Positions 1 through 38,427 of a stretch of 38,427 nucleotides of DNA are shown in pieces (the stretch's first letter is position 1; each line of letters opens with the position of its first letter). This DNA comes from an uncultured Candidatus Saccharibacteria bacterium (GTDB lineage Bacteria; Patescibacteriota; Andersenbacteria; UBA10190). A model generated the notes under the pieces. The model did no database searches, had not been told where the DNA came from, and saw nothing but the letters and a program-made list of their open reading frames with translations. The stretch covers positions 1 through 38,427 of the forward strand of contig CAYPSL010000002.1 of NCBI GenBank assembly GCA_964413615.1, read 5' to 3'. Made by a program: the position numbers and the translations under genes.

Positions 1-300
1 AATAATATAGGTAATGTATAAGACAGAAATACTTAAAAATAGCGTGAGGGGGAGACGTTTCTCTCCCCAAGTAGGAGCGGTGATGCTTGCTGCGGCTAGC
101 CATTGAGTTGTAATTCCTGGGTGTGCTTGTTGGTATAAGCTTTTTAAATCTCCCTTCGTGAGCCCTTCAACAAAGTTTTGAGTATTTCGTTCCCATTGCG
201 GCTCGTCAGGAGAGGTGAATGCGTCTAATAGGAAAACCCGCGGAGCAAAAGTGACGACAGCGAGGAGGATATATGCAAAAATGACCCATTCTTTCTTCAT
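1..300 (-). CDS. N-terminal 100 codons of a polytopic GT-C/GT39-like (PMT/ArnT-type) membrane glycosyltransferase; runs off the window start and is absent from the ORF track
   Basis: Manual reverse-strand translation from ATG at 300..298 gives MKKEWVIFAYILLAVVTFAPRVFLLDAFTSPDEPQWERNTQNFVEGLTKGDLKSLYQQAHPGITTQWLAAASI..., open to position 1. One TM is followed by a loop with a DE pair. It is co-linear with the N-terminus of the 12091..13638 product (PR..D.F..DE..W..R...L..GD...HP.IT). Confidence 0.55.
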   Translation of the reverse strand, partial: MKKEWVIFAYILLAVVTFAPRVFLLDAFTSPDEPQWERNTQNFVEGLTKGDLKSLYQQAHPGITTQWLAAASITAPTWGEKRLPLTLFLSISVLYITYII

Positions 301-303
301 GTT

Positions 304-315
304 TTAGTAGTATAT
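304..315 (-). promoter_or_regulatory. Candidate -10 element (TATACT, 314->309) inside the 12-mer ATATACTACTAA, 8 nt upstream of the ATG at 300
   Basis: The reverse complement of 301..316 reads GATATACTACTAAAAC followed directly by ATG. The identical 12-mer recurs at 7518..7529 (+) upstream of another gene. No convincing -35. Confidence 0.3.
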
Positions 316-323
316 CATGGCAC

Positions 324-353
324 TCGACAAGTAAACCTTCGTTGAGGCATACT
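324..353 (+). promoter_or_regulatory. Candidate sigma70-like promoter: TCGACA (324..329), 18-nt spacer, CATACT (348..353), ending 7 nt before the ATG at 361
   Basis: Read directly from the 60-nt divergent intergenic region. The geometry would place the transcription start at or next to the start codon (leaderless-like). Confidence 0.35.
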
Positions 354-360
354 GTCTTTT

Positions 361-2283: not shown

Positions 2284-2293
2284 TTCTTATACG

Positions 2294-3916
2294 TTACTCT
2301 ATATGGCTCACATCGTATATTTCTACGCGAGGACCCGCAATATGCCAAAGTTGAGGATCGATGCGGTATACAAGCTTTCCGCGCGCTCGAATATCATCAT
2401 AGAAAGCTCGATAGGAAGCTGTTGCTTCGGGGTATAGCCGAGAAGATGTTTGGTCGAAATAACGATCAACAATGCGACTATCCATTGCGATATATTGAAC
2501 ATTTTTTTCTTTTACCCAGTAGGAGATGCTTTTTGCTCTATCGTGGGAAACTTCGGGATCTTTTGCATTTAAATTTGCATATACTTCATCGATTCGTACA
2601 GTTTTATAATTAGTATCATTCCAATCAATAAGCTTAATGGGCGTGTGCTGGAGAATAGTACTTCCATGGGGGATGTGTTCTTTTGCGAAAGCAACTGCAT
2701 TGCTATGGGTCGATCCTCCTGCGTAAGCAATGTCAAACCCTATCGCTAGAACAATATTTTGCAGTACTACAAAAGAAATTCCAGCAATTATAAAGCAATG
2801 AACGATAAAACTATTTGGTTTTTTCAATTGAGAAATATGAAACACTGCCCATGCGGCAAGAAGTGATACAAGGGGAGCTAGCGGCAGTAATCGCTTTATT
2901 GCATACAGCGGCAGTCTTCCAATAATTGCAATATACATAATGAGGATAGCAGCTCCTATGATGGTAATGAATTGCCAGTTGCGCTTATAGATAGCAATAC
3001 ATACCCCTATAATAGCTAGGGTCACAATATAGGGGCTAAACTCCCACCAGACGCCAGATACGGTAAATGGAAGGCCCCAATCAGGAGAAAATGTTGTAAG
3101 TGGCCAAAAAAAGTCTGGGCGAGTATACCCTAAATCTCCACCGGCTCCGCGAAGTTGTAGTTGCTTGTATATTTCAGTGCTTTCTTTCCATTTAATCACT
3201 GTATAAGGAGTTGCCACTATAAAGGCTAGCGGAATGATAAGGAGTCCAAGTAGTATTTTGCGTGAGAATATTTCTCGTAATGCAAATGCTTTGTGTTGCA
3301 TGATAGTTGCAGCATGCGCAAGAAGTAGAACAATGCCAACGGTAAGGCCAGTATAATGAGTTGCACCAGAAAGTCCGGTAAATATTCCTGTAAGAATATA
3401 CCATTGCAATCTTCCTGTTTGTGCCAGGCGTATTGCTGCCCAAACCGCCAGTGTTGTTGCAAGGGTTAAGGGGATGTCTACATGGGTATAGTGGGAATAT
3501 TTTACGTGAAGAGGAAGGAATGCAAAAAATAGCGCGGCAATAAGCCCAAGTTTTGGATTGCGCAATTCTTTTCCAATTCGATATACGACATATACTGTTG
3601 CGGTGCCAAAAAGTGCTGTTACTATTCGCGCTATAAGCGTATAGGTGTCTACTGATGTGTCTGGGCTAGGGTATGGCGCTCCAAAAAGCGCCGCAGGAAC
3701 AAACGCTACCCCGAGAATGTAATGATACAGGTGGGGGTAATAAGACCCCTTGGGGTATAAGAGAGGTTCTTGTTTTCCTTGTGCGAGGCGAACCGATGGG
3801 GTTATTACTTTATTTTCATCGGTATAGATTTGGTGGTTAATACCCCATAGCCTCACCGCAAGCGCTACGGCCAAGAGGGCAAGCATGCTGTAGCCTATAA
3901 GGGATTGGTGTTTCAC
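2294..3916 (-). CDS. Polytopic GT-C glycosyltransferase, GT39 / PMT-ArnT-like (polyprenyl-phosphate-sugar dependent)
   Basis: 540 aa with many hydrophobic spans. TM1 is followed by the loop IYTDENKV (DE pair), then PHLYHYILG, and a soluble C-terminal domain of about 130 aa. The start is either GTG at 3916 or ATG at 3886 (MLALLAV...). Confidence 0.7.
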   Translation of the reverse strand: MKHQSLIGYSMLALLAVALAVRLWGINHQIYTDENKVITPSVRLAQGKQEPLLYPKGSYYPHLYHYILGVAFVPAALFGAPYPSPDTSVDTYTLIARIVTALFGTATVYVVYRIGKELRNPKLGLIAALFFAFLPLHVKYSHYTHVDIPLTLATTLAVWAAIRLAQTGRLQWYILTGIFTGLSGATHYTGLTVGIVLLLAHAATIMQHKAFALREIFSRKILLGLLIIPLAFIVATPYTVIKWKESTEIYKQLQLRGAGGDLGYTRPDFFWPLTTFSPDWGLPFTVSGVWWEFSPYIVTLAIIGVCIAIYKRNWQFITIIGAAILIMYIAIIGRLPLYAIKRLLPLAPLVSLLAAWAVFHISQLKKPNSFIVHCFIIAGISFVVLQNIVLAIGFDIAYAGGSTHSNAVAFAKEHIPHGSTILQHTPIKLIDWNDTNYKTVRIDEVYANLNAKDPEVSHDRAKSISYWVKEKNVQYIAMDSRIVDRYFDQTSSRLYPEATASYRAFYDDIRARGKLVYRIDPQLWHIAGPRVEIYDVSHIE

Positions 3917-3994
3917 TGTTCAACTATATCAAATAGTAGGGGTTGGTGGTATTTCCTTTTTGAGTCTGCCATACTTGCGTATAAGAGGCTTTTT

Positions 3995-4711
3995 ATGATT
4001 ACACCAGAGAGAACCATTATTTTAATCCCGACATATAACGAGGCTGATAATATACGAATCACGCTTCAGAGGATTTACGATATTGACCCTTCTTTTCATG
4101 TTCTTGTATTGGATGATAATTCTCCTGATGGTACCGCTGCAGTTGTTCGAGATGTTAGGAAAAATTATCCTACTATTGATGTGCTGGTTCGTACGAGCAA
4201 CCGAGGATTTGCGCAATCATATATAGATGGATTTAATCTTGTGAGCGCGGGTACGGAATATGACGCAGTTATTACCATGGACGCTGACTTTTCTCATGAG
4301 CCAAAAGAATTGCCTGCTCTATTGCAACTACTCAATAATGGAGCAGATATTGCGATTGGTTCTCGGTATGCGAGAAAGCAGGCATTCCCTCATATTTCCT
4401 TATGGCGTCGAATCATGAGCCGATTTGCAAACTTTTATGTACGCACAGTATTGGGACTGCCAATTACTGACTGCACCGCCGGCTTTATTGCTATGCGCAC
4501 AGATGCATTGCGAAAATTAAGTATGAAGCGGGTGCGTACGGAAGGGTATGGGTTTTTATTTCAATTAAAGTACCGCGCATATAAAAGCGGGTTTCGGATG
4601 GCCGAGCACCCTGTCGCATGGCCAGAGCGCCATCAGGGGAGTTCTAAAATGAATATAAAACGAATCTTCGAATCCTTCCTTTTGCCTTGGAAGATTAAAT
4701 TTGGCTCGTAG
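3995..4711 (+). CDS. Polyprenyl-phosphate sugar synthase, GT2 Dpm1/Ppm1-type (polyprenol monophosphomannose synthase-like)
   Basis: The track ORF (3905) is trimmed to ATG 3995, with AAGAGG a few nt upstream; the longer version would overlap the divergent gene. Motifs ILIPTYNEADNI, VLVLDDNSPDGT, TMDADFSH, IGSRY. About 238 aa with no TM segment. Confidence 0.8.
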   Translation: MITPERTIILIPTYNEADNIRITLQRIYDIDPSFHVLVLDDNSPDGTAAVVRDVRKNYPTIDVLVRTSNRGFAQSYIDGFNLVSAGTEYDAVITMDADFSHEPKELPALLQLLNNGADIAIGSRYARKQAFPHISLWRRIMSRFANFYVRTVLGLPITDCTAGFIAMRTDALRKLSMKRVRTEGYGFLFQLKYRAYKSGFRMAEHPVAWPERHQGSSKMNIKRIFESFLLPWKIKFGS

Positions 4712-4713
4712 AC

Positions 4714-6018
4714 TTACCCTTCAACGATTTCGAAGCGGGGGAGTGGGACAATGAATTTTCCGCCAGATTGCAGGTATTCTTGTTCTCTGTTTTTAAACTC
4801 AGACAAGAAGTGCCAAGGTAAAACAAGGAAATAATCAGGTTTTGCTGCTCGAGCGTCTTCTTCTGAAATAATAGGGATGAGTGTTCCGACTGTTTTCTTG
4901 CCCCATTTATCGGGGTTTCGCTCAGCTGCTGCGGTAATAACGGTATAATCAAGTTCAAAGTATTGAAGCAATGTATTACCTTTAGTTGAAGCTCCGTATA
5001 CGTATACAGTTTTTCCGTTTTCAACTTCTTTCTTGATAAATGAAGTTACCTTTTCTTTAATCGTTTCAACCTCTCTTGCAAAATCCAAGTAAGGGGCTAG
5101 AGTGTCGAGCTGCATGGTCTTCTCTTGGTTCTGCAGGGCTTCTATGCGTTCTGTTGCTCCAGGAATAGGCTTTATGGCCGTATTGTCTTCGTGCGTTATG
5201 TATGTTCGGTAGCTTCCTCCGTTTACATCATTTAGCTCAACATCAATTACTTTTAGCCCATGGCGAGAAAGCAGGTTTTCTAGGGATAGAAGGGAGTAGT
5301 ACTCTAAGTGTTCGTGGCAGATGTTATCAAAAATATTATCAAGAAGCATGCTCGGCAGGTAAGCCATTTGAATAATCCATAAGCCATCTTTTGCTAAGCA
5401 GCTGGCAATATCTGCAACGAACGCATTGGGGTCTTCAAGATCATAAAACATTGCAATGCTGGTAATAATTTTTGCTTGTTTTCCGTTTGTTTTTTCTAAA
5501 AATGGCTGCGCGGAAAAGAAGTCATTGATAACAGTAATATTTGGATCCTCTGCATAGGGCATAAGATTTGTTGCTGGCTCAAAGCCGATGCGGTGTATGT
5601 CTGATCGGTTATAGGATTTGAGGAGAGTGTTGTCGTTACTGCCCGTATCAATGACATAATCGCCAGATTGTAGGTCTGCTATTTTTGATGCTTTTGCTGT
5701 AATGTCTGCAAGCGCATCGCGCATAGTCTGGTTTATTCCTGATCTATACCAGTAGTTTCTGTAGAGCGCCGGTTGATCTGCTGTATGTTTGAGCTGCAAT
5801 AGTCCACAACCGCCCTCTGCTGCATTGCAGATGACTAATTCGAGCGGAGCGCTTGCATTTTCTGCCATACTATCGACAAAATCAGAAATATATTGATTGC
5901 CGAGAGATAAAACGGGCGCTAATGCATCATTTTTGCATACTCGGCAATGGGTTACGGCGCGCGCTTCTTGCGTTTTGGAAGAAGTTTGTACGTCTGTATT
6001 GTTCTTTTCAGTAGGCAT
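4714..6018 (-). CDS. Zinc-ribbon SAM methyltransferase of the TylCIII / NDP-hexose C-methyltransferase-like family
   Basis: 434 aa. N-terminal Cys pairs CRVCKN ... CNAAEGGCG, then YRNYWYRSG, SAM motif YVIDTGSNDNTLL and HEHLEYYS. C-terminal Rossmann-like domain VYVYGASTKGNTLLQY ... DYFLVLPWHF. Confidence 0.7.
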   Translation of the reverse strand: MPTEKNNTDVQTSSKTQEARAVTHCRVCKNDALAPVLSLGNQYISDFVDSMAENASAPLELVICNAAEGGCGLLQLKHTADQPALYRNYWYRSGINQTMRDALADITAKASKIADLQSGDYVIDTGSNDNTLLKSYNRSDIHRIGFEPATNLMPYAEDPNITVINDFFSAQPFLEKTNGKQAKIITSIAMFYDLEDPNAFVADIASCLAKDGLWIIQMAYLPSMLLDNIFDNICHEHLEYYSLLSLENLLSRHGLKVIDVELNDVNGGSYRTYITHEDNTAIKPIPGATERIEALQNQEKTMQLDTLAPYLDFAREVETIKEKVTSFIKKEVENGKTVYVYGASTKGNTLLQYFELDYTVITAAAERNPDKWGKKTVGTLIPIISEEDARAAKPDYFLVLPWHFLSEFKNREQEYLQSGGKFIVPLPRFEIVEG

Positions 6019-6041
6019 TGTATATTGCTTTTAAGTATTTC

Positions 6042-6713
6042 ATGAATATTAAAACAGAGCAAATTTGGGACGAGGTGTGGCAAACGGCAGCTGCTGGGAG
6101 TTTTATTACGCGCCTTCGGCTTATGTATAATCGAATGTTGGGAAAGCTAATTTTGCCTCATGTGGATAGTCAGGGCCGTTCTCTTGAGTTGGGATGCGGA
6201 ACAGCGCAGCTTACCTTGATGGTTGCGCCCCATATCAAGGAAGCAGTGGGACTAGATATTTCTTCGGAAGGGCTAGCTATTGCTGCTCGTGAGCAAGAAC
6301 GGCTTCGGGTTACAAATGCACGGTTTGTAAAAGCGGATGTAAACGACGTACCCTTTGAGCATGAGTTTGATGTAGTGTGGAGTGCGGGATTGATCGAGCA
6401 TTTTTTTGATCGCGATATTGATATCGTAAAACAGCATATACGAGCAGTAAAAAGGGGTGGGGTAGTTGTCATGAGTGTCCCGTACGCATATTCGCTTCAT
6501 AGTTTGCATTATGCGGTAACGCGCCCGGCTATCATGAGACGTTTTTGGCCGTGGAGCCAAGAGAGAAATTTTCAAAAGTTTTACTCAAAGAAGGCATTAC
6601 GATTGCTAGCACGAAAAATAGGCCTTCCTTATAAAGTATATTTTTTGCCTCCGTGGCCGATTGGGTTATTGCTTGGAATTATTGTTATTCAGATTTTGAA
6701 AAATAAAGACTAA
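6042..6713 (+). CDS. Class I SAM-dependent methyltransferase with hydrophobic C-terminal tail
   Basis: The track start is TTG 6018; ATG 6042 (MNIKTEQIW) is preferred. Motifs LELGCGTAQLT, FDVVWSAGLIEHF, VKRGGVVVMSVP. C-terminal PPWPIGLLLGIIVIQIL. Confidence 0.75.
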   Translation: MNIKTEQIWDEVWQTAAAGSFITRLRLMYNRMLGKLILPHVDSQGRSLELGCGTAQLTLMVAPHIKEAVGLDISSEGLAIAAREQERLRVTNARFVKADVNDVPFEHEFDVVWSAGLIEHFFDRDIDIVKQHIRAVKRGGVVVMSVPYAYSLHSLHYAVTRPAIMRRFWPWSQERNFQKFYSKKALRLLARKIGLPYKVYFLPPWPIGLLLGIIVIQILKNKD

Positions 6714-6774
6714 ATAAGCTCTTTGGCGGAAGGGCTCTTTACTGCATTCTTGCTCATACGGTACTGTTAGTTCT

Positions 6775-7479
6775 ATGAATGAGCGTGGAGTACAACCTCG
6801 AGTTGTTATATTAATGCCTTCGTATCGAGCGGGTAGGAGAGTAGTTGATACGTATAATAAGATTCCGAAAGACGCAGTTTCTGAAATAATCATTGTAGAC
6901 GATGCATCTCCTGACGATACATTTGAATATGCAAAAACATTGCCTGCAATAGTGTTTCGTAATGAAAAAAATAAGGGATATGGAGGGAATATGAAATTTT
7001 TGCTCCAAAAGGGCCTTGAGACTGGGGGAGATGTTTTTATTGAATTGCATGCGGATGGTCAGTATGATCCTTCGGTCATACCTCAAGCAGTTGCTGCATT
7101 AAGCCCAACTGATGGGATGCTACTAGGGTCTCGCGTGATGACCTCGAAAAATGCATTGAATAATGGAATGCCGTTTATTAAGTATGTAATGAATAGGGTT
7201 CTTACCATGATTGCAAATATGGTACTTGGAAGTAGTCTTACAGAATTTCATTCTGGTTTTCGTGTGTATACACGTCCTTTTTTGGAAAAGGTTGATGTAA
7301 TGAAAAATTCTAATGATCACTTGTTTAGTTTTGAAACAATTGTGCAGGCGCTGCGCAATGGATTTACTGTTCGCGAAATACCCGTTGTTTGTACGTATGA
7401 GCCAGGCGTAACGCAAATGAATTTAAAAAAAGGCATCAAATATACGATCGAAATGTTGACCACCCTTGCTCGATTATAG
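6775..7479 (+). CDS. GT2 family glycosyltransferase (GT-A fold)
   Basis: 234 aa. VVILMPSYRAG, IIIVDDASPDDT, ELHADGQYDP. Confidence 0.7.
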   Translation: MNERGVQPRVVILMPSYRAGRRVVDTYNKIPKDAVSEIIIVDDASPDDTFEYAKTLPAIVFRNEKNKGYGGNMKFLLQKGLETGGDVFIELHADGQYDPSVIPQAVAALSPTDGMLLGSRVMTSKNALNNGMPFIKYVMNRVLTMIANMVLGSSLTEFHSGFRVYTRPFLEKVDVMKNSNDHLFSFETIVQALRNGFTVREIPVVCTYEPGVTQMNLKKGIKYTIEMLTTLARL

Positions 7480-7517
7480 GTAGCTTTTCAACTGTACGCT
7501 TTTTGTGTAGTGTCTAT

Positions 7518-7529
7518 ATATACTACTAA
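7518..7529 (+). promoter_or_regulatory. Candidate -10 element (TATACT 7519..7524) inside the 12-mer ATATACTACTAA, 21 nt upstream of the ATG at 7546
   Basis: Same 12-mer as 304..315 (-). It lies in the 66-nt gap after the 6775..7479 gene. No good -35 seen. Confidence 0.3.
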
Positions 7530-7545
7530 CCAATGTTCTAAAACT

Positions 7546-8778
7546 ATGCGTATAACAGCTTGTAGGATATGTAATGGACGAAATATTGTTTCTGTGTTGG
7601 ATCTGGGGATGATGCCTGCGCCGAATCGATTTCCTGAGACGGTAAAAGACTTTCAGTCTGAAGAAATGTTTCCGCTCCGGTTTTGTCGTTGTGAAGATTG
7701 CGGTTTGGCGATGATTGATGAGGTTGTTGCGCCAGAAAAGCTTTTTTCTACGTATCACTATTTAACCGCGGCATCTAGCCCTTTGGTTACCCACTTTCGA
7801 GCATTGGCTGAAGAGGTTCAAGAAAATTTTCGTTTAACAAAAAAATCAAAAGTTCTTGATATTGGCGCAAACGATGGCACGCTTTTGCTTGAGTTTCAGA
7901 AACATGGCACCAAAACGCTTGGCATTGATCCAGTAAAAAATGTTGCGCTGATTGCTGAAACTAAGGGGGTGCACGTGTTGCCAGAGTTTTTCTCTCATTC
8001 GTTAGCAAAAAAAGTAAAGAAAAAAGAAGGGCAGTTCGATATTATTACGGCTACAAATGTATTTGCTCATACGCACGATATTCATGATTTTACCAATGGG
8101 GTTAAAGAGTTGCTTGCTCCAAACGGCGTATTTATCGTAGAGTTTGCCCATTTGCTGGAAATGTTCGAACATAAATTCTTCGACGTAATTTATCATGAGC
8201 ATTTGTCATTTTACGCACTGCAGCCCTTGGTTCAATTCTTCGAAGGACATGGAATGAAAATATTTGATGCAAAAAAGATTTTAACCCAAGGAGGTTCACT
8301 CAGAATTTATGTAACCCATGAAAAAAGTAAAAAGCATGATATTTCTCCAGCAATAGCCAAGATCTTAAAAGAGGAGAAAAAACACGGACTCGATAAAAGG
8401 GAATCGTTTGAGAAATTTGCTGATTATGTGCGAGGGTACCAATCATCGCTACGGACTTTGTTGCAAAAACTTAAAATAAAAGGGAAGAAAATTGTAGGCG
8501 TGGGTGCTCCTGCAAAAGGGGTTATATTGCTTAACTATTGTAGGATTGATGGGGATATTATCGATTATTTGGTAGATAGCACTCCCCTGAAGCAACATAG
8601 ATTTCTTCCAGGAGTTCATATTCCTGTGTTTTCTGAGGAGAAATTAGCGGAAGAAAAAATAGATTACTTCGTGATACTCGCGCATAATTTTCAGGATGAA
8701 ATTATTCAAAAGCTTTCCCCGTATCGAGAGCGAGGAGCAAAAATTATCTTGCCATTCCCCAAAATTCATACTATATGA
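7546..8778 (+). CDS. Second zinc-ribbon SAM methyltransferase of the TylCIII / NDP-hexose C-methyltransferase-like family
   Basis: The track start is GTG 7510; ATG 7546 (MRITACRICNG) is preferred. Cys pairs CRICNG ... CEDCGL, then YHYLTAASSPL, VLDIGANDGTLL, YHEHLSFY, IVGVGAPAKGVILLNY ... DYFVILAHNF. Confidence 0.75.
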   Translation: MRITACRICNGRNIVSVLDLGMMPAPNRFPETVKDFQSEEMFPLRFCRCEDCGLAMIDEVVAPEKLFSTYHYLTAASSPLVTHFRALAEEVQENFRLTKKSKVLDIGANDGTLLLEFQKHGTKTLGIDPVKNVALIAETKGVHVLPEFFSHSLAKKVKKKEGQFDIITATNVFAHTHDIHDFTNGVKELLAPNGVFIVEFAHLLEMFEHKFFDVIYHEHLSFYALQPLVQFFEGHGMKIFDAKKILTQGGSLRIYVTHEKSKKHDISPAIAKILKEEKKHGLDKRESFEKFADYVRGYQSSLRTLLQKLKIKGKKIVGVGAPAKGVILLNYCRIDGDIIDYLVDSTPLKQHRFLPGVHIPVFSEEKLAEEKIDYFVILAHNFQDEIIQKLSPYRERGAKIILPFPKIHTI

Positions 8779-11302: not shown

Positions 11303-11308
11303 GTTGTT

Positions 11309-15667: not shown

Positions 15668-15677
15668 GTCATACAAT

Positions 15678-21370: not shown

Positions 21371-21416
21371 TAGGGAGTTTTTCATAAATCTGCTACGCTT
21401 TATACGTATCTATATT

Positions 21417-25573: not shown

Positions 25574-25575
25574 AG

Positions 25576-29554: not shown

Positions 29555-29557
29555 ATC

Positions 29558-30262: not shown

Positions 30263-30273
30263 AGGAATGTAGG

Positions 30274-31317
30274 TTAAGTATGCACTATATCTTGTAGAAC
30301 TGTCATTATCTCATCTACGGTGATCGCGGCAAGGCAGCTTTTTGTACTTTGCTTTCCCGGATTATTCCAATCTACATATCCTTGAACTCGCCACTCTTCC
30401 GGGGTCAGATTAATTTTTGTGGAGCCCTCTTTTAGGAATCCGAATACTGGTCCCGTGGGCCCTACTAACGTTGCGTGCTGCCTTGAGACGTCTTGGATGT
30501 ATCGATTTAAAAAGTATGATGGCGCGGCGCGATACAGGGGCTGATCGCACATAAGGGTGATTGTTTGAAGTCCAACTGCAGCAGCAAAATGAAGTGGCCC
30601 AGAAAGTACCCCAATTGCAACATCACAGTATGTAAGCGTCGCAATATTTTCTCGGAGGGTAAGAGGTCTTCCTTCGTAGTCGTGAAGAAATTTTGATCCG
30701 AACCAAATTGGCGAATGCCCATATTGTTTTTTGATGCGCTTCTCTAGTTCTACTAGTTTATTTGGATCCCACCCTCTGGTAGTTCTCCCTTCTATACTTT
30801 CCAATAAAACAATTCTTGGTTTTTGAAAATCTTCCATAACAGACGCTGCCACTTCTAAATCTTTTTTGGTAAGGTAGAGTCTATAGTTTGTATTAGTTTC
30901 TTCCGGCATTCCTATGTGATCATAAAGATGCTTCATGGGGTTTTCGTCCTGAAGAATTCCGATATCAAGCTCCCAAACTGCGTCATAGTTATGGGATTTT
31001 TTTTGTTTCTCGTAATATTTCTTACTCCAAGTTGGAAATGACAAACCCTCTTCTTTGCAGAGCGATCCACTAAGATCGGTTACGTTGTCATGAAAATGCA
31101 CAAGTTGATCAATATGGGGATTCGTCATCATAAGCGAAATAGAAAACCCGCCCTGGTTTCGCTTTCCCCATGCTCCGTATTTATCCTTAAATCCCCAAGC
31201 AGTGACAAGGGTAATGTGACTCTCGGGGTACTTTTTTTTAATTGTTTCAAGAATGGGCGGTACAAAAAACACAAGATCGCCCATATTTCCCACATGGCGA
31301 ATAAGGAATTTCTTCAT
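30274..31317 (-). CDS. Divergent GT9-like glycosyltransferase
   Basis: 347 aa. FLIRHVGNMGDLVFFVPPILETIKKKYPESHITLV matches the N-terminal GT9 pattern. C-terminal AIGVLSGPLHFAAAVGLQTITLM matches ..DSG..HLAAA.G.. but has Leu in place of Asp. Confidence 0.55.
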   Translation of the reverse strand: MKKFLIRHVGNMGDLVFFVPPILETIKKKYPESHITLVTAWGFKDKYGAWGKRNQGGFSISLMMTNPHIDQLVHFHDNVTDLSGSLCKEEGLSFPTWSKKYYEKQKKSHNYDAVWELDIGILQDENPMKHLYDHIGMPEETNTNYRLYLTKKDLEVAASVMEDFQKPRIVLLESIEGRTTRGWDPNKLVELEKRIKKQYGHSPIWFGSKFLHDYEGRPLTLRENIATLTYCDVAIGVLSGPLHFAAAVGLQTITLMCDQPLYRAAPSYFLNRYIQDVSRQHATLVGPTGPVFGFLKEGSTKINLTPEEWRVQGYVDWNNPGKQSTKSCLAAITVDEIMTVLQDIVHT

Positions 31318-32435
31318 ACTGCCATGCGCCTCTTTTTAATATCTACAATAAGCGCCTCCATCCGATTTTTTGAATTAAGATAACTATATTGCTCTAGACG
31401 ATCCTTTGCGGTGCGTACAATATCGCCATAATAAGAAGAGTCAGATAAAAGTTGCTTCCCCTGAAGAACAAGCTGGTCAACTGTGGTTTCTCGTTCTGAT
31501 AGAAGTTTAGGGAACAGGTCGTCCTGTCCATCCGAATTAGCACCTATACTTACAGTTCCAACGGCTGCACAATCTACTTGGACTCTTCCGCGAGTCTGTG
31601 TGTAGTCAGTGTTTATAACTAGCGCTACTTTCGAAAGCATTGCCAGATGTTCTTGCCATGGCTGAAAGGGAATAATGTCGTATGTAGAGCCGCTTAAATT
31701 TGTTACATCTAACTCCATTCCAGGAATTTCTGCCATCTGAATTCTGTAATGTGGAAATATTTTTTGAAGCTTTTTCGCAACTATCTGGCCTTTTGTTATT
31801 TCGTCTCTTCCGGTAACTCCCGCTACAAAAATAATATTACTTTTCTTTTCTCTTGGCTTAAACATAAGCGATGCATAATCCACCGGGTAAGGCTGGGGCA
31901 TATATATAACTTCAGTAGAAGTCATTTTTTTCCATATGGGCAATGTACGTCTTACTATAGTGAGGAACGTATCACACCTTTTCATAAACTCTTGTATTTC
32001 TTTTTTGCTATGGGGAGTTTTTTTCCAATGATCCTGCAGTATTCCATATGGTTGAGTAGGAACGCCAATAACAGCGCATTCTGGGTGATCTTTTCTTAAC
32101 TTGTCTAAAAATGCGACAAGCTCATGCCCATCCTGAATTTGATACACTACAAGCAGTGCATCGAACTGCTTGAGATAAGAGATGTCATAATTGGTATTCC
32201 ATGATCCAAAAAGGCGCTTTTCTACTCGTCGTACAAAGGAGGTAATGGGGTGAACTAATTCTCCGGAAATAAGTGCCGTGAGAGGAATATGCTCTCCCTC
32301 TAGGGCGGAAACGTAACAGCCGAAGCTCGTCGGATCTATTTCCTTAACAGGGTCACACAAATAGTTAGGACGCTCATGTGTATGTCGCCATATTTGTTTT
32401 GTTTTGCTTGAATATTCTATAACTGCAAACTTCAT
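31314..32435 (-). CDS. Cytoplasmic protein of unknown function; weak GT-B-like C-terminal half
   Basis: 373 aa with no TM segment. NIIFVAGVTGRDEITKG ... LVINTDYTQTRGRVQVDCAAVGTVSIGAN is loosely like the C-terminal domain of GT-B enzymes. ATGA coupling on both sides. Confidence 0.3.
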   Translation of the reverse strand: MKFAVIEYSSKTKQIWRHTHERPNYLCDPVKEIDPTSFGCYVSALEGEHIPLTALISGELVHPITSFVRRVEKRLFGSWNTNYDISYLKQFDALLVVYQIQDGHELVAFLDKLRKDHPECAVIGVPTQPYGILQDHWKKTPHSKKEIQEFMKRCDTFLTIVRRTLPIWKKMTSTEVIYMPQPYPVDYASLMFKPREKKSNIIFVAGVTGRDEITKGQIVAKKLQKIFPHYRIQMAEIPGMELDVTNLSGSTYDIIPFQPWQEHLAMLSKVALVINTDYTQTRGRVQVDCAAVGTVSIGANSDGQDDLFPKLLSERETTVDQLVLQGKQLLSDSSYYGDIVRTAKDRLEQYSYLNSKNRMEALIVDIKKRRMAV

Positions 32436-33982
32436 ACCCCTGATGATGATTTTTTAAATCTTTTTTGAAGCATGTCCATAAGCTCATGCATTTCTTCTAT
32501 CTTGAATGCATACGCAAGAGCTAAGTATAGTATACATCCCGTTGAAATAGGGATGAGTATGCTTAATCCATAAGGGAGCCGTATAGTGGAAATTACCCAA
32601 ATTGCCCCTGCGGAACATATGGAAATAGTTATTGTTTTTAGGTAGGAGGGATGAATAAAAATACGATGCGCATATGAGATAAAACGAGTCAAGTATAGGT
32701 AATAGAGTAATGCTGAAGACAATGGAACAAGAGATGATGCCAAGGCCAGCCCCGCAAATCCCATATGCGGCACAAATAAAGCAAAGAGAGAAATCGCCAC
32801 TGCTTGAGATGAAATAGTTATAGCGACAGCAGCCTTCGTCTCCTGAAGTGCAAGCACAGCATGACCCAAGATAGAACTAATCCCTGTAGTTGTCAGACCG
32901 AGCACTAAATAGAGAAGTGCCAGGCTTGTAAACTCAACATCTTGGGAAGAGAATGATCCACGTTCATAGAGAAAAGAAACGATGTCGTGCCTTAAAATAG
33001 CTACCGCTAGAATAAGGGGGAGTGTGGTAAATACAATAAGCCGCATCGAGCTCCCAATAGTATCCCTCATTCCAGATCTATCCTTTAAGCTAGCCTTTTC
33101 CGACAACAGGGGATAGATCACCATTGTTACTGAGTTTAAAAAGATAATTGTAATTAGTTGGGTAATTTTTTCAGCGTATTTTAGGGCGGATAAGCTGCCC
33201 TCAGTAAGAGATGAAACTAATACCCTGTACACGATGCCAGCACCCTGAGTCATTAAAACTGACAAAATAAAAGGGTATACCAACGTCGCAAGACTGCGTA
33301 TGGAGGGGTCTTTTACATTAATAAAAAAACGATATCGCATTCCTTTTCTTGTAAGGCCCCAAGCTAATATCAAAAGCTGAATGAAAGACCCAGCAACAAC
33401 ACCAACTGCGAAGGCATAAATGCCCAACGATTTAACGAGCAATAATATGCTAATAATAGAAATTGCAGGTGAAACTATCCGCAACGATGCTGGGAGGGCA
33501 AATTCCTTGAAGGAGTGCAGCATTGATGTTGCGAACTCAACAAGAAACAGGAAAAAGAACGAGGGAAGAAGTATTCTTAAGAGCGATACGGTAAGTGTGT
33601 ATGTTTCTCCGGTAAATCCCGGTGCAATAATTCTGATAAAGGCTCCAGAGCCTACCCATATAATGATAATGGCAATAATATACGCGAATGCCATTATATT
33701 TACGATATTAAGCCCAAGATCCCAAGCTTCTTTTGTCTTTTTCTGCGCAAGCCTATGAACAAATAATGGAATAAACACTGCGGTAATTGACCCACCCATA
33801 AGGAGCTTACCTAATAATTCCGATGTGGACTGGGCCATAAAAAATGCATCCGTTGTGCCGCTTGCCCCAAAATGATATGCAACAAGAAGCTGAAGAAAGA
33901 ATCCAACAATAGACCCAATAAATGCAGTTAGTCCGATAATTCCTGCTTTTTTTGCAGTGCCACGAAGTTCTTCTTTGCTCAT
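32432..33982 (-). CDS. murJ: MurJ/MviN-family (MOP superfamily) lipid-linked glycan flippase
   Basis: 516 aa and polytopic. N-terminal FFLQLLVAYHFGASGTTDAFFMAQSTSELLGKLLMGGSITAVFIPLF matches the MurJ N-terminal signature. Confidence 0.7.
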   Translation of the reverse strand: MSKEELRGTAKKAGIIGLTAFIGSIVGFFLQLLVAYHFGASGTTDAFFMAQSTSELLGKLLMGGSITAVFIPLFVHRLAQKKTKEAWDLGLNIVNIMAFAYIIAIIIIWVGSGAFIRIIAPGFTGETYTLTVSLLRILLPSFFFLFLVEFATSMLHSFKEFALPASLRIVSPAISIISILLLVKSLGIYAFAVGVVAGSFIQLLILAWGLTRKGMRYRFFINVKDPSIRSLATLVYPFILSVLMTQGAGIVYRVLVSSLTEGSLSALKYAEKITQLITIIFLNSVTMVIYPLLSEKASLKDRSGMRDTIGSSMRLIVFTTLPLILAVAILRHDIVSFLYERGSFSSQDVEFTSLALLYLVLGLTTTGISSILGHAVLALQETKAAVAITISSQAVAISLFALFVPHMGFAGLALASSLVPLSSALLYYLYLTRFISYAHRIFIHPSYLKTITISICSAGAIWVISTIRLPYGLSILIPISTGCILYLALAYAFKIEEMHELMDMLQKRFKKSSSGV

Positions 33983-34806
33983 ATGCCAATTCCGTATCGC
34001 ATTGTATGACTTGCAATATGCATAAGGTCAAGCAATGAAATGCCAAAAAGAATAATAAGAAGGGTTTGCGCAAAAGTATCTTGCAAACCGAGAAAGCGCT
34101 GCAACCGGTCAAGTCCAAATGACGCAAACCATGCGAGAGACGCAACTACGGCAATAATTGCTTTTGGATATGTTAGGGGGCCTGGTATAAACGCAAAGGC
34201 CATACTTATAACAAGTAAGGTGAAAAAAGTAGTTTCTATCTGCATTGAAACAAATCTTTTTTGAATCACCATGGAAAACCAAATACAAATACCGACAATT
34301 GCAAATAATGCTCCGGCAATTCCAATATACCCTCCTGCACTATGCGAAACACTTATTTGATTAGGGTCAATAAGCGCATCCCGCAAAGAAAGGATTTCTT
34401 GTTGCCCCTCAATAGATATAAAGGAGAGAGGGAGCCAAGTAGAGCAAGCAAACAAGCATGCGCCAAAAAAGGATGCAAGATATGTGCGACCAGCAATACG
34501 TAGTGCGATCCAAAAAAAGACCGCCAAGACCAAAAAGGAAACCATAAATATTGCATATGGTATATCTGCGTCGGGGGCGGATATGGAATGAAGCAAGGAA
34601 ATTGCAATAAGAAGCGTAAGGGAGGATACTAGTGGATTTTTTTTCACAAGATTCCATAGCAAAAACCAACTACCAACAATAAAGGAAAGTCCGCCGAGTT
34701 GTTTTGCAAATGTATCCTGCTCATCTACATTAATTATATAAAGTAAAAAGGTAGCTACAATAAACAAAATTCCTGTACCTATTTTTAAAATAGTATTTTT
34801 ATTCAT
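33979..34806 (-). CDS. Polytopic membrane protein, unknown function
   Basis: 275 aa with roughly 8 hydrophobic spans and no recognised motif. ATGA overlap with the downstream MurJ-like gene. Confidence 0.5.
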   Translation of the reverse strand: MNKNTILKIGTGILFIVATFLLYIINVDEQDTFAKQLGGLSFIVGSWFLLWNLVKKNPLVSSLTLLIAISLLHSISAPDADIPYAIFMVSFLVLAVFFWIALRIAGRTYLASFFGACLFACSTWLPLSFISIEGQQEILSLRDALIDPNQISVSHSAGGYIGIAGALFAIVGICIWFSMVIQKRFVSMQIETTFFTLLVISMAFAFIPGPLTYPKAIIAVVASLAWFASFGLDRLQRFLGLQDTFAQTLLIILFGISLLDLMHIASHTMRYGIGI

Positions 34807-34969
34807 ATCGTTTTCTTGCTATGTGTAGAACGCTAAATATACAAGCAAGAGCAATAGTCGCATACAAAGCTTCTGGAGAAAATAGGGCGGGCTGCAAATA
34901 TCGCGCAATACTAATCAAGAGAGCGGAAAAGAAGAATGCCCAAGCAAAGGTGTGTATGGTCTTCTTCAT
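34799..34969 (-). CDS. Possible small two-TM membrane protein (56 aa), below the ORF-track cutoff
   Basis: Manual translation gives MKKTIHTFAWAFFFSALLISIARYLQPALFSPEALYATIALACIFSVLHIARKRYE. Its TAA overlaps the start of the next gene by 8 nt (ATGAATAA). It fills an otherwise unexplained 171-nt gap in a tightly packed operon. Confidence 0.3.
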   Translation of the reverse strand: MKKTIHTFAWAFFFSALLISIARYLQPALFSPEALYATIALACIFSVLHIARKRYE

Positions 34970-34977
34970 AGGCAGCT

Positions 34978-35520
34978 CTAGAGAGGCCGCTCTCTTATAA
35001 TGATGCTCTTTATATAGTTTTTCACTTCTTTCATTGTCGGCATAATTGGCTCAACGGTAGCACGAAATGCGTGAATCCTCCACTTTGTCTCTGCTTGTTC
35101 AGTAGAAAAGAACATAAGATCAACAGATCTATCAACGTCCTGAAGTGCGGAAGTTAAGGGGATTTCAATCTCTTTTGTCTGAAAGCCTTCTGGATCAATT
35201 CCTTTTTCATATAAGCGATAAGGAGTGTAACTTAACCAGAACTCATTTTCCCGAACACCAATATCGAGAGTAGTGGAATCTTCTGGGTTAAATGAAATGG
35301 TAAGGGTTAATTTTTTTGCAAAAACATTTTCGCGTAAAAAAAGATCCGCGTGAGCCATTTCTTCGAGAATGACTATAGAGTCTTCAAACTTGGGGAAGGG
35401 AACACCGTGTATTGATTCTAGGGTTCCCAAGTCTCTCTCTCCTTGTTGAGCGATAGACCATCCAAATATCGCAAGGCAGATACATACGGTGCTAATACAG
35501 ATGCTCCAAAAAATTTTCAT
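34978..35520 (-). CDS. N-terminally anchored or secreted protein, unknown function
   Basis: 180 aa. A single N-terminal hydrophobic segment IFWSICISTVCICLAIFGWSI is followed by a hydrophilic domain. ATGA overlap with the upstream flippase gene. Confidence 0.5.
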   Translation of the reverse strand: MKIFWSICISTVCICLAIFGWSIAQQGERDLGTLESIHGVPFPKFEDSIVILEEMAHADLFLRENVFAKKLTLTISFNPEDSTTLDIGVRENEFWLSYTPYRLYEKGIDPEGFQTKEIEIPLTSALQDVDRSVDLMFFSTEQAETKWRIHAFRATVEPIMPTMKEVKNYIKSIIIRERPL

Positions 35521-36962
35521 ACCACTTTACTTTCTTTTTGCCGAAACGAAGTTATTGTCTCTATGTCTTTCTTTGTTACTTCGCCAAGTATCCAAAGCAT
35601 AGCAATATACACTAGGCCAAGCACTGCATATTGAATGGGGAGCATGAGAGAGCTGGCTTTCCATATATAGGTAGGGGCTACCATTATCGCGCTGGCAATA
35701 ATAATATGGAGCGTACTTTGTATTGGATATGGAATTTTAAACGTTCTAAATGTGTATATTGCAAGAGCTGCAAGACCAGTAAGCGAGGCTACTGTTGTTT
35801 GCCACGCAGCTCCGACTGCTCCAAAGGCAGGAATTGTGATTGTTCCAACTATTGCACTTATGCCTATCATTGCCCCGGTAATGTAAAGGGCTACATGAGC
35901 TTTTCCGGCTCCAGCCACAATATTCGCAAGAAGCAAATAAAACGACAATGCGCCAAGGCCGATCATAAGCACAGTGAGAACGGGAGCTGCTGGGGCATAG
36001 CTTGCAGAGAAGAATAAAATGATAAGCTCCTTGCTCGTGGCAGAAGCGAGAACAACGCTTGGGAGAATAAGGGCTATTAAGTATCGAAGAGCATCGCGAA
36101 TAAAGCCCACCGCCTTGTCATGAGATTCTCCGGGGCGTGTTAATGCTGCCACGCTTGGAAGTAGTACAAACGCGAGCCCTTGGAGAAGCATGTAGGAAAT
36201 TCTAGATAAAGAAACCGCCGCATTGTAATACCCGGCCAAAATATCATCTTTTAAAATAGCCTTTACCATAAATAGATCCAGGCTCATTAATATCTGTAAT
36301 CCAACCAATATGACTGCATAGGTTCCTGCAAACGAAAGAAAGGACTTGAGCGGTATTACGTATGGCTTACTTCCTCCAATTGACCGTGTCCAATACCAAC
36401 CGAATGATGCTGCGATAATTCCACCAACCGCAAAGCCTGCAAGTGCTCCATATAGGCTAAATAGATATATAAGTGAAATTGCTCCTACTAACTTTGCTAC
36501 TGCATACAAGGAAGTAAGCATTGCCTGCTTGGTGAATTGATGCATTCCGCTTAAAAACTGCACATAAATAGGGAATAATCCTTGCAGGAAAATAACTCCA
36601 CCTATAAACATTAAATACGTAGAAAGAGAAGAGTCGTTCAATATATAAGCAATGCCCGGAGCCAAAAGGACTACGGTAGTCGCGAGACACAAACCGATAA
36701 CCATCTGAATTCGAAGGGCTTGTTTTAAGATATATTGCGCATGAGCCGTATTTTGGGCAACAAACTTAGAAACTGCGCTTGGTACCCCAAGGGTAAGTAA
36801 AATCCCAAAAATTGTTTGCACGGATAGAACTACTCCATACACTCCGTATTGCGCAGGGCCCAAAAGGCGCCCAATCCATGGATGAATAATGTATCCCAAA
36901 AAAAGAACTACGGCCTGTGCCAGGGTAAGCGCTATTGCTCCTGTGAGTTTGGATTGCTTCAT
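35517..36962 (-). CDS. Wzx-like oligosaccharide/polysaccharide flippase (MOP superfamily)
   Basis: The track start is TTG 37001; ATG 36962 (MKQSKLTGAIALTLAQ) is preferred because it avoids overlapping the upstream gene. 481 aa and polytopic. GRLLGPAQYGVYGVVLSVQTIFGILLTLGVPSAVSKFVAQ is typical of polysaccharide-biosynthesis flippases. Confidence 0.7.
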   Translation of the reverse strand: MKQSKLTGAIALTLAQAVVLFLGYIIHPWIGRLLGPAQYGVYGVVLSVQTIFGILLTLGVPSAVSKFVAQNTAHAQYILKQALRIQMVIGLCLATTVVLLAPGIAYILNDSSLSTYLMFIGGVIFLQGLFPIYVQFLSGMHQFTKQAMLTSLYAVAKLVGAISLIYLFSLYGALAGFAVGGIIAASFGWYWTRSIGGSKPYVIPLKSFLSFAGTYAVILVGLQILMSLDLFMVKAILKDDILAGYYNAAVSLSRISYMLLQGLAFVLLPSVAALTRPGESHDKAVGFIRDALRYLIALILPSVVLASATSKELIILFFSASYAPAAPVLTVLMIGLGALSFYLLLANIVAGAGKAHVALYITGAMIGISAIVGTITIPAFGAVGAAWQTTVASLTGLAALAIYTFRTFKIPYPIQSTLHIIIASAIMVAPTYIWKASSLMLPIQYAVLGLVYIAMLWILGEVTKKDIETITSFRQKESKVV

Positions 36963-36969
36963 AGATATA

Positions 36970-38406
36970 TTATGGAACAAGTGAGGGGCCGAGCGCCACA
37001 AGATCGATTCCTACAAGTTCTGAATTAGGATTAAGAATAGAAAGCGATACAAAGCCTCTCTCATCAATGTGTACCATGCTTTGAGGTAATTCAACCGTTA
37101 TATCAGAGGAATAGGGAAGGGGTAATACTTCTCCTGAAGAGGTGAGTAGCATTAGGTTTTGTATCGGTTTTATGAGACGGAGCATAAGAGTTACTGTAGT
37201 TTCTGGCCTTCCTACATCGCTTGGGTCCCATAAAACTCTTACATAATCTCCCACATTAAACGAAAGGGGGATAATTGGCGACGCAGTCTCCCTGTATGTA
37301 CTATTTTCCGTTACGAGCGGTTCGGATAAGCGCGGACTTTGAAGGCTCGCTGGCAAGTGCTCAAAAGTATCCATTCCATCTCCGATATCATTGGCAAGTG
37401 TAGTCGATCGCATAAGGAAAGCACATGCTGGCTTTTGAAAACAATTACTGTCGCCTGTATTTTTTACAGCAAATATCGTTGCATCATCAGCAATTGCAAT
37501 CGGATGTAGTAAAGGATTACGAGAAAGCCCTGGTACCGATGTCGTGGAAGTCCCTACTATATATCCAATCGAGTTTCGAGATAGAAGAGGGGCAATTTCG
37601 GGTAAGCTTGCAAGGTTTATTATCTTTTCATAATCAAGCTGACGAATATAGAGGTCTTTTCTTAACGGAGATTGATTTGATTCCTCCATTTGACGCTCAA
37701 GATCGGAAGCAATCCGAGTAAACATTGGCTTGCCGGAAAGAACAAGCCAAGAGGCGCTTCTTCTACTATAATCATCTATCAAAACAGCAGAATTTTCTGA
37801 TTCGGCTTTCAGTTGCTCAATAGCGCCTAGCTGCTCTCCAGTGAGCGTAGAATTTGTTCGCACAGTGTGAGAAAGTGACCCATAGGCGAATTGCGTAGAG
37901 TTAAAAGCAATACTGCACACAGCAAATATTATGCTTCCCTGAGCAAAGATTTTTGCATATCCATGATATGTACGTCCTGCAACAAAAAAGAGCTTTGAAA
38001 TAAAATACGCTCCCGCAACAGAGAGCGGTATCGCTAAATAAAATAATGCCCGAACAGGTGGGATGTCTATCCCAATAGCAGGCCCCTGTGAAAGAAGAAG
38101 AAGCATAAAAATACCCGCAACAAACGAAACGACTTGCCGCCTATGCGCATCTTTTCTTCGAGCCTCAACAAACATAAGAAGCGCCCCAGATATACCTATA
38201 AAAAACCATCCCGCTCCCATAAGTGCAGGGTATTCCATTATTGTCGGGAGGGAGGATAGTAAATGTGGCGTTGTTGTAAATATAGAGGGTATTTTTTCTC
38301 CTAGGCCAAGAGATAACGCAATAGCAAGCGCCACAGCACAGAGTATTCCTAGTGATCCGGAAAGAACCGCGTGGTCTCTTGCTGCAAGAATAATATTAAT
38401 CCGCAT
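36970..38406 (-). CDS. Membrane protein with about 5-6 N-terminal TM spans and a C-terminal extracytoplasmic domain of about 290 aa; unknown function (possibly GT-C related)
   Basis: 478 aa and the first gene of the long minus-strand array. No diagnostic motif recognised. Confidence 0.45.
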   Translation of the reverse strand: MRINIILAARDHAVLSGSLGILCAVALAIALSLGLGEKIPSIFTTTPHLLSSLPTIMEYPALMGAGWFFIGISGALLMFVEARRKDAHRRQVVSFVAGIFMLLLLSQGPAIGIDIPPVRALFYLAIPLSVAGAYFISKLFFVAGRTYHGYAKIFAQGSIIFAVCSIAFNSTQFAYGSLSHTVRTNSTLTGEQLGAIEQLKAESENSAVLIDDYSRRSASWLVLSGKPMFTRIASDLERQMEESNQSPLRKDLYIRQLDYEKIINLASLPEIAPLLSRNSIGYIVGTSTTSVPGLSRNPLLHPIAIADDATIFAVKNTGDSNCFQKPACAFLMRSTTLANDIGDGMDTFEHLPASLQSPRLSEPLVTENSTYRETASPIIPLSFNVGDYVRVLWDPSDVGRPETTVTLMLRLIKPIQNLMLLTSSGEVLPLPYSSDITVELPQSMVHIDERGFVSLSILNPNSELVGIDLVALGPSLVP

Positions 38407-38427
38407 CTTAATTGATTCAGCTATTAT

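Follow-up and report, generated by a model that had tools for sequence, protein, structure and literature searches.

The DNA considered here, referred to as the window, is a complete NCBI contig of 38,427 nt (CAYPSL010000002.1), part of a metagenome-assembled genome of Candidatus Andersenbacteria, that carries a candidate envelope-glycan locus rich in membrane-bound glycosyltransferases (GTs) of the GT-C type. Its GC content is even (41–43%), and a six-frame listing of open reading frames (ORFs) gives 33 densely packed genes with no space left for more. The ORFs were found at the coordinates given in an earlier note on this DNA; genes and their products are designated below by these coordinates, with the strand added where a gene is introduced. 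Every gene to which a function can be assigned is related to glycans, and scans of the window for tRNAs, Rfam RNAs and tandem repeats found none. Two long operons can be read from the ORF coordinates, one of 11 genes on the + strand (6018–19061) and one of 14 genes on the − strand (22622–38427), and the junctions within both are mostly overlaps of 4 nt. The Pfam counts are six GT4, four GT2, five methyltransferases, one carbohydrate esterase of family 4 (CE4) and one extended short-chain dehydrogenase/reductase (SDR), together with one clear GT9 match (101 bits), one weak GT9 match (18 bits) and two MOP flippases, one MurJ and one of the Wzx type. The earlier inventory of GT4 genes, flippases, methyltransferases, deacetylase and SDR is thus upheld, and only the first of its two GT9-like enzymes is clear. 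Large membrane-protein genes are cut at both contig ends (1–297, −, and 36970–38427, −), and since both ends fall inside GT-C-type genes the locus must extend past the window.

At least seven GT-C-like membrane proteins had been claimed for this DNA, and Pfam families, Foldseek comparison of two structural models and profile–profile links bear the claim out. Eight proteins of the window are demonstrated, or strongly indicated, to be of the GT-C type, and their activity is predicted from family and fold. All seven originally named are polytopic, the complete ones with 8–17 hydrophobic segments in hydropathy analysis. The description of these proteins as paralogues was too strong: in an all-against-all BLASTP comparison the large membrane proteins barely resembled one another, which speaks against recent paralogy, and judged by sequence the eight split into at least three unrelated groups. 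The PMT_2-like group comprises 1–297, 2294–3916 (−) and 12091–13638 (+). The PMT/PMT_2-type protein 2294–3916 scores above the cut-offs of both PMT_2 (58.1 bits) and PMT (44.4 bits), covering PMT profile positions 3–236 of 245; its NCBIfam matches are limited to archaeal STT3 and Agl23, far under cut-off. Assignment of 12091–13638 to the PMT_2 type is marginal (26.4 bits against a cut-off of 26.1, E 9e-6). The fragment 1–297, a GT-C-like N-terminus of 99 amino acids cut by the contig end, matches no Pfam family at cut-off and is 34% identical over 50 amino acids to the N-terminus of 12091–13638, with the first transmembrane helix (TM1) and a DE motif in common. The YfhO-like group consists of 13619–15667 (+), 19053–21344 (−), 27398–29554 (−) and probably the DUF6541-family protein 36970–38427, and an orphan group holds 9695–11302 (+) alone. 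On their own sequences, 9695–11302, 13619–15667, 19053–21344 and 36970–38406 have no Pfam or NCBIfam match, and a Pfam rerun at E <= 10 gave nothing further for the membrane proteins. PDB sequence and profile searches with 19053–21344 and with the membrane-family alignments returned no meaningful match, fold comparison being the only PDB route that gave GT-C matches for the orphan proteins.

This fold comparison covered AlphaFold2 (AF2) models of 13619–15667 and 9695–11302, in both of which a helical bundle extends to about residue 405–411 and is followed by soluble domains. The model of 13619–15667 has a mean predicted local distance difference test score (pLDDT) of 88.8 and a predicted template-modelling score (pTM) of 0.85, and GT-C enzymes alone make up its top 24 Foldseek matches in the PDB (AftD at 3e-7, followed by EmbB, STT3, PglB and AftA). 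Its C-terminal part forms an extracytoplasmic alpha/beta domain and a beta-sandwich, and weaker Foldseek matches of the sandwich are of the carbohydrate-binding module (CBM) type. The model of 9695–11302 (pLDDT 80.6, pTM 0.79) likewise has a top 22 made up entirely of GT-C enzymes, with STT3 first at 5e-8, followed by PglB, ALG9, AftA, ArnT (TM-score 0.51), AftB and Pmt4. All matches of the two models at E <= 0.001 (24 and 17, respectively) are GT-C enzymes, and transporters appear in either list only at a probability <0.5 and a TM-score of about 0.12. Database homologues of 13619–15667 number 169, none with a name beyond 'hypothetical' and almost every one from Andersenbacteria; 16 were found for 9695–11302. 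YfhO was matched by 0/30 scanned members of the 13619–15667 family in Pfam, and the distant relation of this protein to YfhO comes from profile alignment: its family aligns by hhalign with that of 19053–21344 at 95% probability (E 2e-8). No hhalign signal linked 9695–11302 to 2294–3916, 12091–13638 or the 13619–15667 family. On the strength of the models, the 9695–11302 and 13619–15667 families are predicted GT-C families that Pfam and NCBIfam do not recognise.

The remaining YfhO-like proteins are connected by families and profiles. Matching YfhO (PF09586) at 29.0 bits against a cut-off of 28.5, 27398–29554 aligns with the 19053–21344 family by hhalign at 98% probability (E 6e-14), its GD falling on the DW of that family. 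Several of the 40 homologues of 19053–21344 match PF09586, and one is named 'YfhO family protein'. An N-terminal extension of about 190 amino acids, comprising a poorly conserved TM helix and a variable domain of about 150 amino acids, distinguishes 19053–21344, whose true start probably lies near codon 21; an exact database look-up of the full-length ORF gave no entry, the deposited protein has 650 amino acids (a shorter start) and homologues keep about 745–765 amino acids. The last gene, 36970–38427, encodes the C-terminal ~485 amino acids of a polytopic protein of ~780 amino acids, with the frame open to the window end. The fragment matches residues ~300–775 of homologues of ~775–786 amino acids, and the contig stops short of the N-terminal ~300 amino acids, which include a conserved LPTGD loop. 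The fragment itself has no Pfam match, the DUF6541-matching N-terminal half being outside the window; the full-length orthologue in a related locus (L009) matches DUF6541 (PF20176) at 41.3 bits against a cut-off of 29. DUF6541 is matched by 7/30 family members at E <= 0.1 and, among ten tabulated individually, two lie above the gathering score. The 36970–38427 family aligns co-linearly with that of 13619–15667 by hhalign (60% probability, E 9e-5), and, in a search of a small local database, one of its members matches the hidden Markov model (HMM) of the 19053–21344 family at E 6e-6. The protein, which had been put forward with a 'perhaps', is on these alignments a probable GT-C.

A further member of this circle appears to have lost its active site. 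The gene 33979–34806 (−) encodes a membrane protein of 275 amino acids with ~8–9 TM helices and is conserved between MurJ and a small protein with one TM helix. It has no Pfam or NCBIfam match, its relatives are mostly 424–523 amino acids long, and its family aligns by hhalign with that of 19053–21344 at 98.8% probability (E 7e-17), leaving the DWD-bearing segment unaligned. It is thus probably a degenerate, non-catalytic YfhO-like protein, devoid of the catalytic loop-1 region, and it may serve as a partner or scaffold. Identification as a Wzy polymerase or GtrA flippase found no support, a truncated YfhO-like derivative being indicated instead. Longer relatives (L009:13671–14945, L018:13358–14929 and others) carry the N-terminal beta-rich domain of 19053–21344.

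An acidic motif in the loop after TM1 had been described for each of the large membrane proteins. Six of the motifs do lie ~5–10 residues past TM1: PDEPQW at residue 30 of 1–297, IYTDENK at 30 of 2294–3916, AGDVFNF at 58 of 9695–11302, QDEQPW at 29 of 12091–13638, GGDPWQ at 39 of 13619–15667 and GDMRDVF at 30 of 27398–29554. The seventh, NDWDY at residue 225 of 19053–21344, departs from this placement and stands behind the ~190-residue extension; in profile alignments it coincides with the loop-1 motifs elsewhere in the YfhO-like group, GGDPWQ of 13619–15667 falling on INDWDY within one residue. Conservation of the loop aspartate was scored in four families, all outside the PMT_2-like group of 1–297, 2294–3916 and 12091–13638. 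D40 (GGDPWQ) is invariant in the 13619–15667 family (30/30), as are D60 (PAGDVFNF) in the 9695–11302 family (16/16) and D206, W207 and D208 (INDWDY) in the 19053–21344 family (28/28), and the GD of 27398–29554 is kept in 4/4 orthologues, so that the aspartate is invariant in all four alignable families. In the AF2 models, D40 and D60 open the first helix that follows TM1, where the GT-C catalytic base is expected (ArnT, PglB, PMT).

The GT-C genes are accompanied by small GT2 genes for predicted polyprenyl-phosphate-sugar synthases. Two soluble Dpm1/Ppm1-type synthases had been counted previously; three were found (3905–4711, +; 6775–7479, +; 29558–30262, −), none of which has TM helices by hydropathy. 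The best PDB match of 3905–4711 is the Pyrococcus furiosus dolichyl-phosphate mannose synthase (DPMS; 5mlz, E 4e-27) over chain residues 24–240, its catalytic domain, followed by ArnC and GtrB. The same structure is the sole PDB match of the DPMS/PpgS-like 6775–7479 (E 2e-12), and 29558–30262 is 41% identical to 3905–4711. The best NCBIfam models for the three are AglJ, ArnC, dolichyl-P-hexose transferase and PpgS, all under cut-off. Each adjoins, or shares an operon with, GT-C genes: 3905–4711 is divergently paired with the PMT-type 2294–3916, and 29558–30262 lies directly upstream of the YfhO-like 27398–29554.

A second set of genes points to unusual sugars. The product of 7510–8778 (+) matches the D-mycarose 3-C-methyltransferase MtmC over its full length (4rv9, E 3e-93), and also 5t64 and 3ndi, KijD1 and TcaB9 being among the proteins matched, with a Methyltransf_14 score of 177 bits. 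That of 4714–6018 (−) is 27% identical to it over the full length and has the same three domains, a zinc ribbon, an S-adenosylmethionine (SAM)-dependent domain (Methyltransf_13 is also matched) and Methyltransf_14 (159 bits). Both are, on this similarity, predicted nucleoside diphosphate (NDP)-sugar 3-C-methyltransferases of the MtmC/TcaB9 kind, 7510–8778 presumably acting on an NDP-4-keto-6-deoxyhexose. The adjacent extended SDR (8775–9698, +; Epimerase 149 bits) resembles NDP-sugar 4,6-dehydratases or epimerases, its best NCBIfam models being dTDP-glucose 4,6-dehydratase and LegB, under cut-off. As far as we know, bacterial cell-surface glycans seldom contain C-methyl-branched sugars, and two 3-C-methyltransferases in a surface-glycan locus therefore predict an unusual sugar composition.

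Among the remaining cytoplasmic enzymes, the six GT4 genes are 1093–2283 (−; Glycos_transf_1 95 bits and Glyco_trans_4_4), a + strand triplet (15678–16838, 16822–17943 and 17940–19061; Glycos_transf_1 156, 125 and 116 bits), 21225–22637 (+; 118 bits) and 23661–24803 (−), which contains an in-frame TGA. The clear GT9 enzyme, of the heptosyltransferase family, is encoded by the last gene of the − strand operon (22622–23677), and the weak one by 30274–31317 (−), a conserved protein below the Glyco_transf_9 cut-off whose orthologues occupy the same position with 51–73% identity. A generic GT2 (24800–25573, −; Glycos_transf_2 80 bits) precedes the CE4 polysaccharide deacetylase (25576–26229, −; Polysacc_deac_1 59 bits), which is presumably cytoplasmic since no TM or signal segment is predicted. 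The product of 26226–27401 (−) is a putative glycosyl- or glycerophosphotransferase with weak likeness to BFO_1060 (59 bits, under cut-off) and, in its C-terminal part, to TagF (Glyphos_transf 29.6 bits). The two flippases are a MurJ/MVF-family protein (32432–33982, −; MurJ 231 bits) and a Wzx-type MOP protein (35517–37001, −; Polysacc_synt 78 bits, Polysacc_synt_3 63 bits).

Comparison with related metagenome loci shows which parts of the window travel together. The closest (L001, CAZZHI010000003.1) has 85% protein identity over 13619–15667 and full synteny over 2294–25573. Its record bears the name 'uncultured Candidatus Saccharibacteria'. The other relatives all belong to Candidatus Andersenbacteria of the Parcubacteria/Patescibacteria group, and the label of L001 is probably wrong. 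The central block (13619–25573) recurs in three further loci (L002–L004) at 40–57% identity with different left neighbours, and the GT4 triplet (15678–19061) keeps its order in all four. In L002 and L004 a small GT2 adjoins the orthologue of 13619–15667. The left neighbours in L004 are a GT2 with DUF2304, a 680-amino-acid membrane protein, a CE4, a PMT_2–GtrA fusion and an HldE-like gene, the last two noted at L004:1–28 and L004:9–1403. The HldE-like gene (PfkB and CTP_transf_like), in a locus of 57% identity, is a possible source of ADP-heptose for the GT9 enzymes. The right block (27398–38427) recurs in at least 10 metagenome loci. In L009, the DUF6541 gene is preceded by a further DPMS-like GT2 and a GT4, beyond which unrelated genes begin, and on this evidence the locus would end about two genes past the window end. 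In another relative (L022:18726–21333), a cassette like 3905–6713, with a DPMS-like GT2, a C-methyltransferase and a methyltransferase, adjoins the orthologue of 30274–31317, and blocks have thus been rearranged within the locus. Because the central and right blocks are each conserved with different neighbours, the locus is modular, with a conserved core and movable or accessory cassettes, and because 9695–11302 has 16 homologues compared with 169 for 13619–15667, its left part is accessory. The earlier view of the whole window as one multistep pathway therefore holds for its GT-C-rich, two-compartment character, but the blockwise pattern of conservation speaks against there being only one pathway.

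From these observations we consider it likely that the contig is a lineage-conserved, modular, two-compartment envelope-glycan locus of Candidatus Andersenbacteria, within the Patescibacteria or candidate phyla radiation (CPR). In the cytoplasm, the SDR and the two 3-C-methyltransferases would, judging from their families, turn nucleotide sugars into C-methyl-branched deoxysugars, and the three further SAM methyltransferases would add other methyl groups. The six GT4 enzymes, one or two GT9 enzymes, the GT2 and the TagF/BFO_1060-like enzyme would assemble a lipid-linked oligosaccharide, and the CE4 enzyme may de-N-acetylate a sugar, possibly still lipid-linked, as ArnD does. The three DPMS/Ppm1-like enzymes could supply up to three polyprenyl-phosphate monosaccharide donors, and the Wzx-type and MurJ-type flippases would carry lipid-linked intermediates across the membrane. 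On the outer face, the GT-C enzymes would pass sugars from the polyprenyl-phosphate donors to the growing glycan or the final acceptor, with 13619–15667 and its CBM-like domains possibly acting as the polymer-elongating Emb and AftD do. Several points weigh against this reading. Pfam finds in the window no WecA/MraY-like or WbaP-like priming phosphoglycosyltransferase, and also no Wzy polymerase, small flippase of the GtrA/ArnEF type, nucleotidyltransferase or clear 4,6-dehydratase. MurJ may be the plain lipid II flippase of the cell, and one GT4 gene carries a premature stop. Marginal Pfam scores carry the GT-C status of 12091–13638 and 27398–29554, and that of the 36970–38427 family rests on the 60% hhalign link, PDB profile searches having found nothing.

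Other explanations fit parts of the same evidence. It is very improbable that the large membrane proteins are transporters, permeases or structural proteins with coincidental acidic motifs, as might be supposed from the four proteins that match no family above cut-off on their own sequence and from the empty PDB sequence and profile searches. The Foldseek matches of the orphan models, the PMT/PMT_2 and YfhO matches and the profile links all lead to GT-C enzymes, not to transporter or other non-glycosyltransferase families, and the loop aspartate is invariant; 33979–34806, its catalytic loop lost, is one member that may be non-enzymatic. Less remote, and still unlikely, is a single linear pathway to one lipoglycan resembling lipomannan and lipoarabinomannan (LM/LAM), in which GT4 enzymes would act on a lipid anchor, the product would be flipped and GT-C enzymes would extend it from Ppm1-type donors. 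In its favour, GT4, Ppm1-like and numerous GT-C genes occur together in the window while a polyprenyl-phosphate priming transferase is missing from it, and the model of 13619–15667 is nearest to AftD and EmbB and ends in CBM-like domains. However, the blocks are conserved independently beside different neighbours, a cassette is movable and the left part is accessory, all of which speaks against one linear route, and the Wzx-type flippase argues for an oligosaccharide linked to polyprenyl diphosphate. No GT87/DUF2029, Arabinose_trans or Emb/Aft match was found by Pfam in the window, and no lipid-anchor enzyme was identified there. The likeness to LM/LAM assembly that the earlier note had drawn is only architectural, and the resemblance to AftD, EmbB and AftA lies at the level of the fold alone.

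A real, if minority, chance attaches to a third explanation, that the window holds independent pairs of donor synthase and GT-C enzyme that decorate pre-existing acceptors. The PMT-like and Ppm1-like enzymes might then O-glycosylate surface proteins (S-layer, pilins), as in actinobacterial Ppm1/Pmt, and a YfhO-like protein with a CsbB-like GT2 might decorate a teichoic-acid-like polymer or peptidoglycan, while the GT4, GT9 and Wzx proteins would make a separate polysaccharide. The divergent arrangement of 3905–4711 beside 2294–3916, the position of 29558–30262 directly upstream of 27398–29554 and the small GT2 beside the 13619–15667 orthologue in L002 and L004 all speak for such pairing, and so do the conservation of blocks as separate modules and the presence of a TagF-like gene. 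Yet the donor synthases number no more than three against eight GT-C genes, the packing of genes into two long operons whose stop and start codons overlap suggests co-expression for one shared structure, the CBM-like domains of 13619–15667 fit polymer elongation, and no gene for an acceptor protein is present in the window. Starting from the preferred reading of a modular envelope-glycan locus, a more far-reaching proposal can be made, which we hold tentatively and regard as rather doubtful: the product might be a major, lineage-defining envelope heteropolysaccharide or lipoglycan of Andersenbacteria, elongated largely outside the membrane by a lineage-specific GT-C battery, two of its families being absent at sequence level from Pfam, NCBIfam and the PDB, with a catalytically dead YfhO-like partner beside MurJ, containing 3-C-methyl-branched deoxysugars and possibly heptose. 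It would then be an analogue of arabinogalactan (AG) and LAM evolved independently in an ultra-small episymbiont, with the variable left cassette producing strain-level surface diversity.

No characterised cluster with this gene order was found in a literature search, in keeping with the earlier expectation, and the search returned nothing relevant on glycans, GT-C enzymes or YfhO in Andersenbacteria or other CPR/Patescibacteria, nor on DUF6541. In the mycobacterial AG/LAM region (Rv3779, aftA-embCAB, aftB, with Ppm1/PpgS-type synthases) GT-C genes are clustered in about 35 kb, and this region appears to be the closest analogue in architecture. In both, clustered GT-C genes are accompanied by genes for cytoplasmic GT-A and GT-B enzymes, GT-C enzymes end in carbohydrate-binding domains (in the window on the 13619–15667 model, nearest AftD and EmbB), and the extracytoplasmic donors are, in the window by prediction, polyprenyl-phosphate sugars. 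Unlike that region, the window has no members of the Emb, Aft or GT87 sequence families and no genes of the decaprenyl-phosphoryl-arabinose (DPA) pathway, it belongs to a CPR host and not to an actinobacterium, and it adds YfhO-like and PMT_2-like groups, two MOP flippases and 3-C-methyltransferases. The pairing of the GT2 29558–30262 with the YfhO-type 27398–29554 recalls csbB-yfhO of Bacillus subtilis and, more generally, the three-component CsbB/GtcA/YfhO and GtrB/GtrA/GtrC systems. In contrast to CsbB and GtrB, the window enzymes lack C-terminal TM helices and match only the DPMS catalytic domain; the window contains no GtrA/GtcA flippase (PF04138), nor any gap big enough for one, and its GT-C genes far outnumber the donor synthases. 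A GT2 synthase, a CE4 enzyme of the ArnD-like type and a GT-C enzyme lie close together at 25576–30262, as in the ArnC/ArnD/ArnEF/ArnT pathway, but equivalents of ArnA, ArnB and ArnEF are absent from the window, scores are far below the equivalog cut-offs and the host is presumably a monoderm without lipid A. The divergent pair of 2294–3916, with PMT/PMT_2 matches and a loop-1 DE motif, and the Ppm1-like 3905–4711 resembles actinobacterial Ppm1/Pmt (GT39), except that no PMT_4TMC domain is detected. A Wzx/Wzy locus is represented only by the Wzx-type 35517–37001, with no Bac_transf, Glycos_transf_4, Wzy_C or Wzz match in the window. The 3-C-methyltransferases share the three-domain architecture of MtmC, TcaB9, KijD1 and TylC3, to which 7510–8778 is similar over its full length, but they belong to a CPR surface-glycan locus and not to a secondary-metabolite cluster.

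The logic of such a system, with cytoplasmic build-up, flipping and GT-C extension from polyprenyl-phosphate sugars, is established, and no principle is overturned by the present locus; what is new is the lineage, the combination of genes and two sequence-orphan GT-C families, 9695–11302 and 13619–15667, each of which may represent a new CAZy GT-C family. The contigs of relatives reach 0.85 Mb, pointing to a genome size in the region of a megabase, and for such a genome eight GT-C enzymes in a conserved locus of 40 kb or more would be a very large investment. CPR envelopes presumably mediate host attachment. The locus predicts an abundant, extracytoplasmically assembled glycan with C-methyl-branched sugars, and its conserved core and variable cassette offer a concrete handle on surface variation in uncultured CPR bacteria.

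The remaining genes encode three SAM-dependent methyltransferases and two conserved proteins. The methyltransferases are 361–1083 (+, class I; Methyltransf_23/25/31/11), 6018–6713 (+; Methyltransf_25/11/12), which opens the + strand operon, and 11309–12094 (+; Methyltransf_31/11/25). The soluble protein 31314–32435 (−) has no Pfam, NCBIfam or PDB match and is conserved in syntenic orthologues at 45–69% identity; it may have a divergent GT-B fold, but its hhalign comparison with a GT4 C-terminal domain was non-significant. The protein 34978–35520 (−), of 180 amino acids with one N-terminal TM helix, has no Pfam or NCBIfam match and has syntenic orthologues of 34–59% identity. The TGA in the GT4 gene 23661–24803 lies at 24003–24005, and the frame continues beyond it with intact GT4 motifs to 23661. 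A conserved recoded stop is ruled out, as the orthologues in L001 and L002 read a conserved glycine (RVRIIGKLSD; GGA to TGA), and because they encode glycine the TGA is either a nonsense change, making a pseudogene, or a sequencing or assembly error. Finally, the longest ORFs of 19053–21344 (−) and 21225–22637 (+) overlap head to head by 120 nt, so that at least one of them starts downstream; relatives of 21225–22637 align only from residue 48–67 on, and its real start is probably about 48–65 codons downstream.

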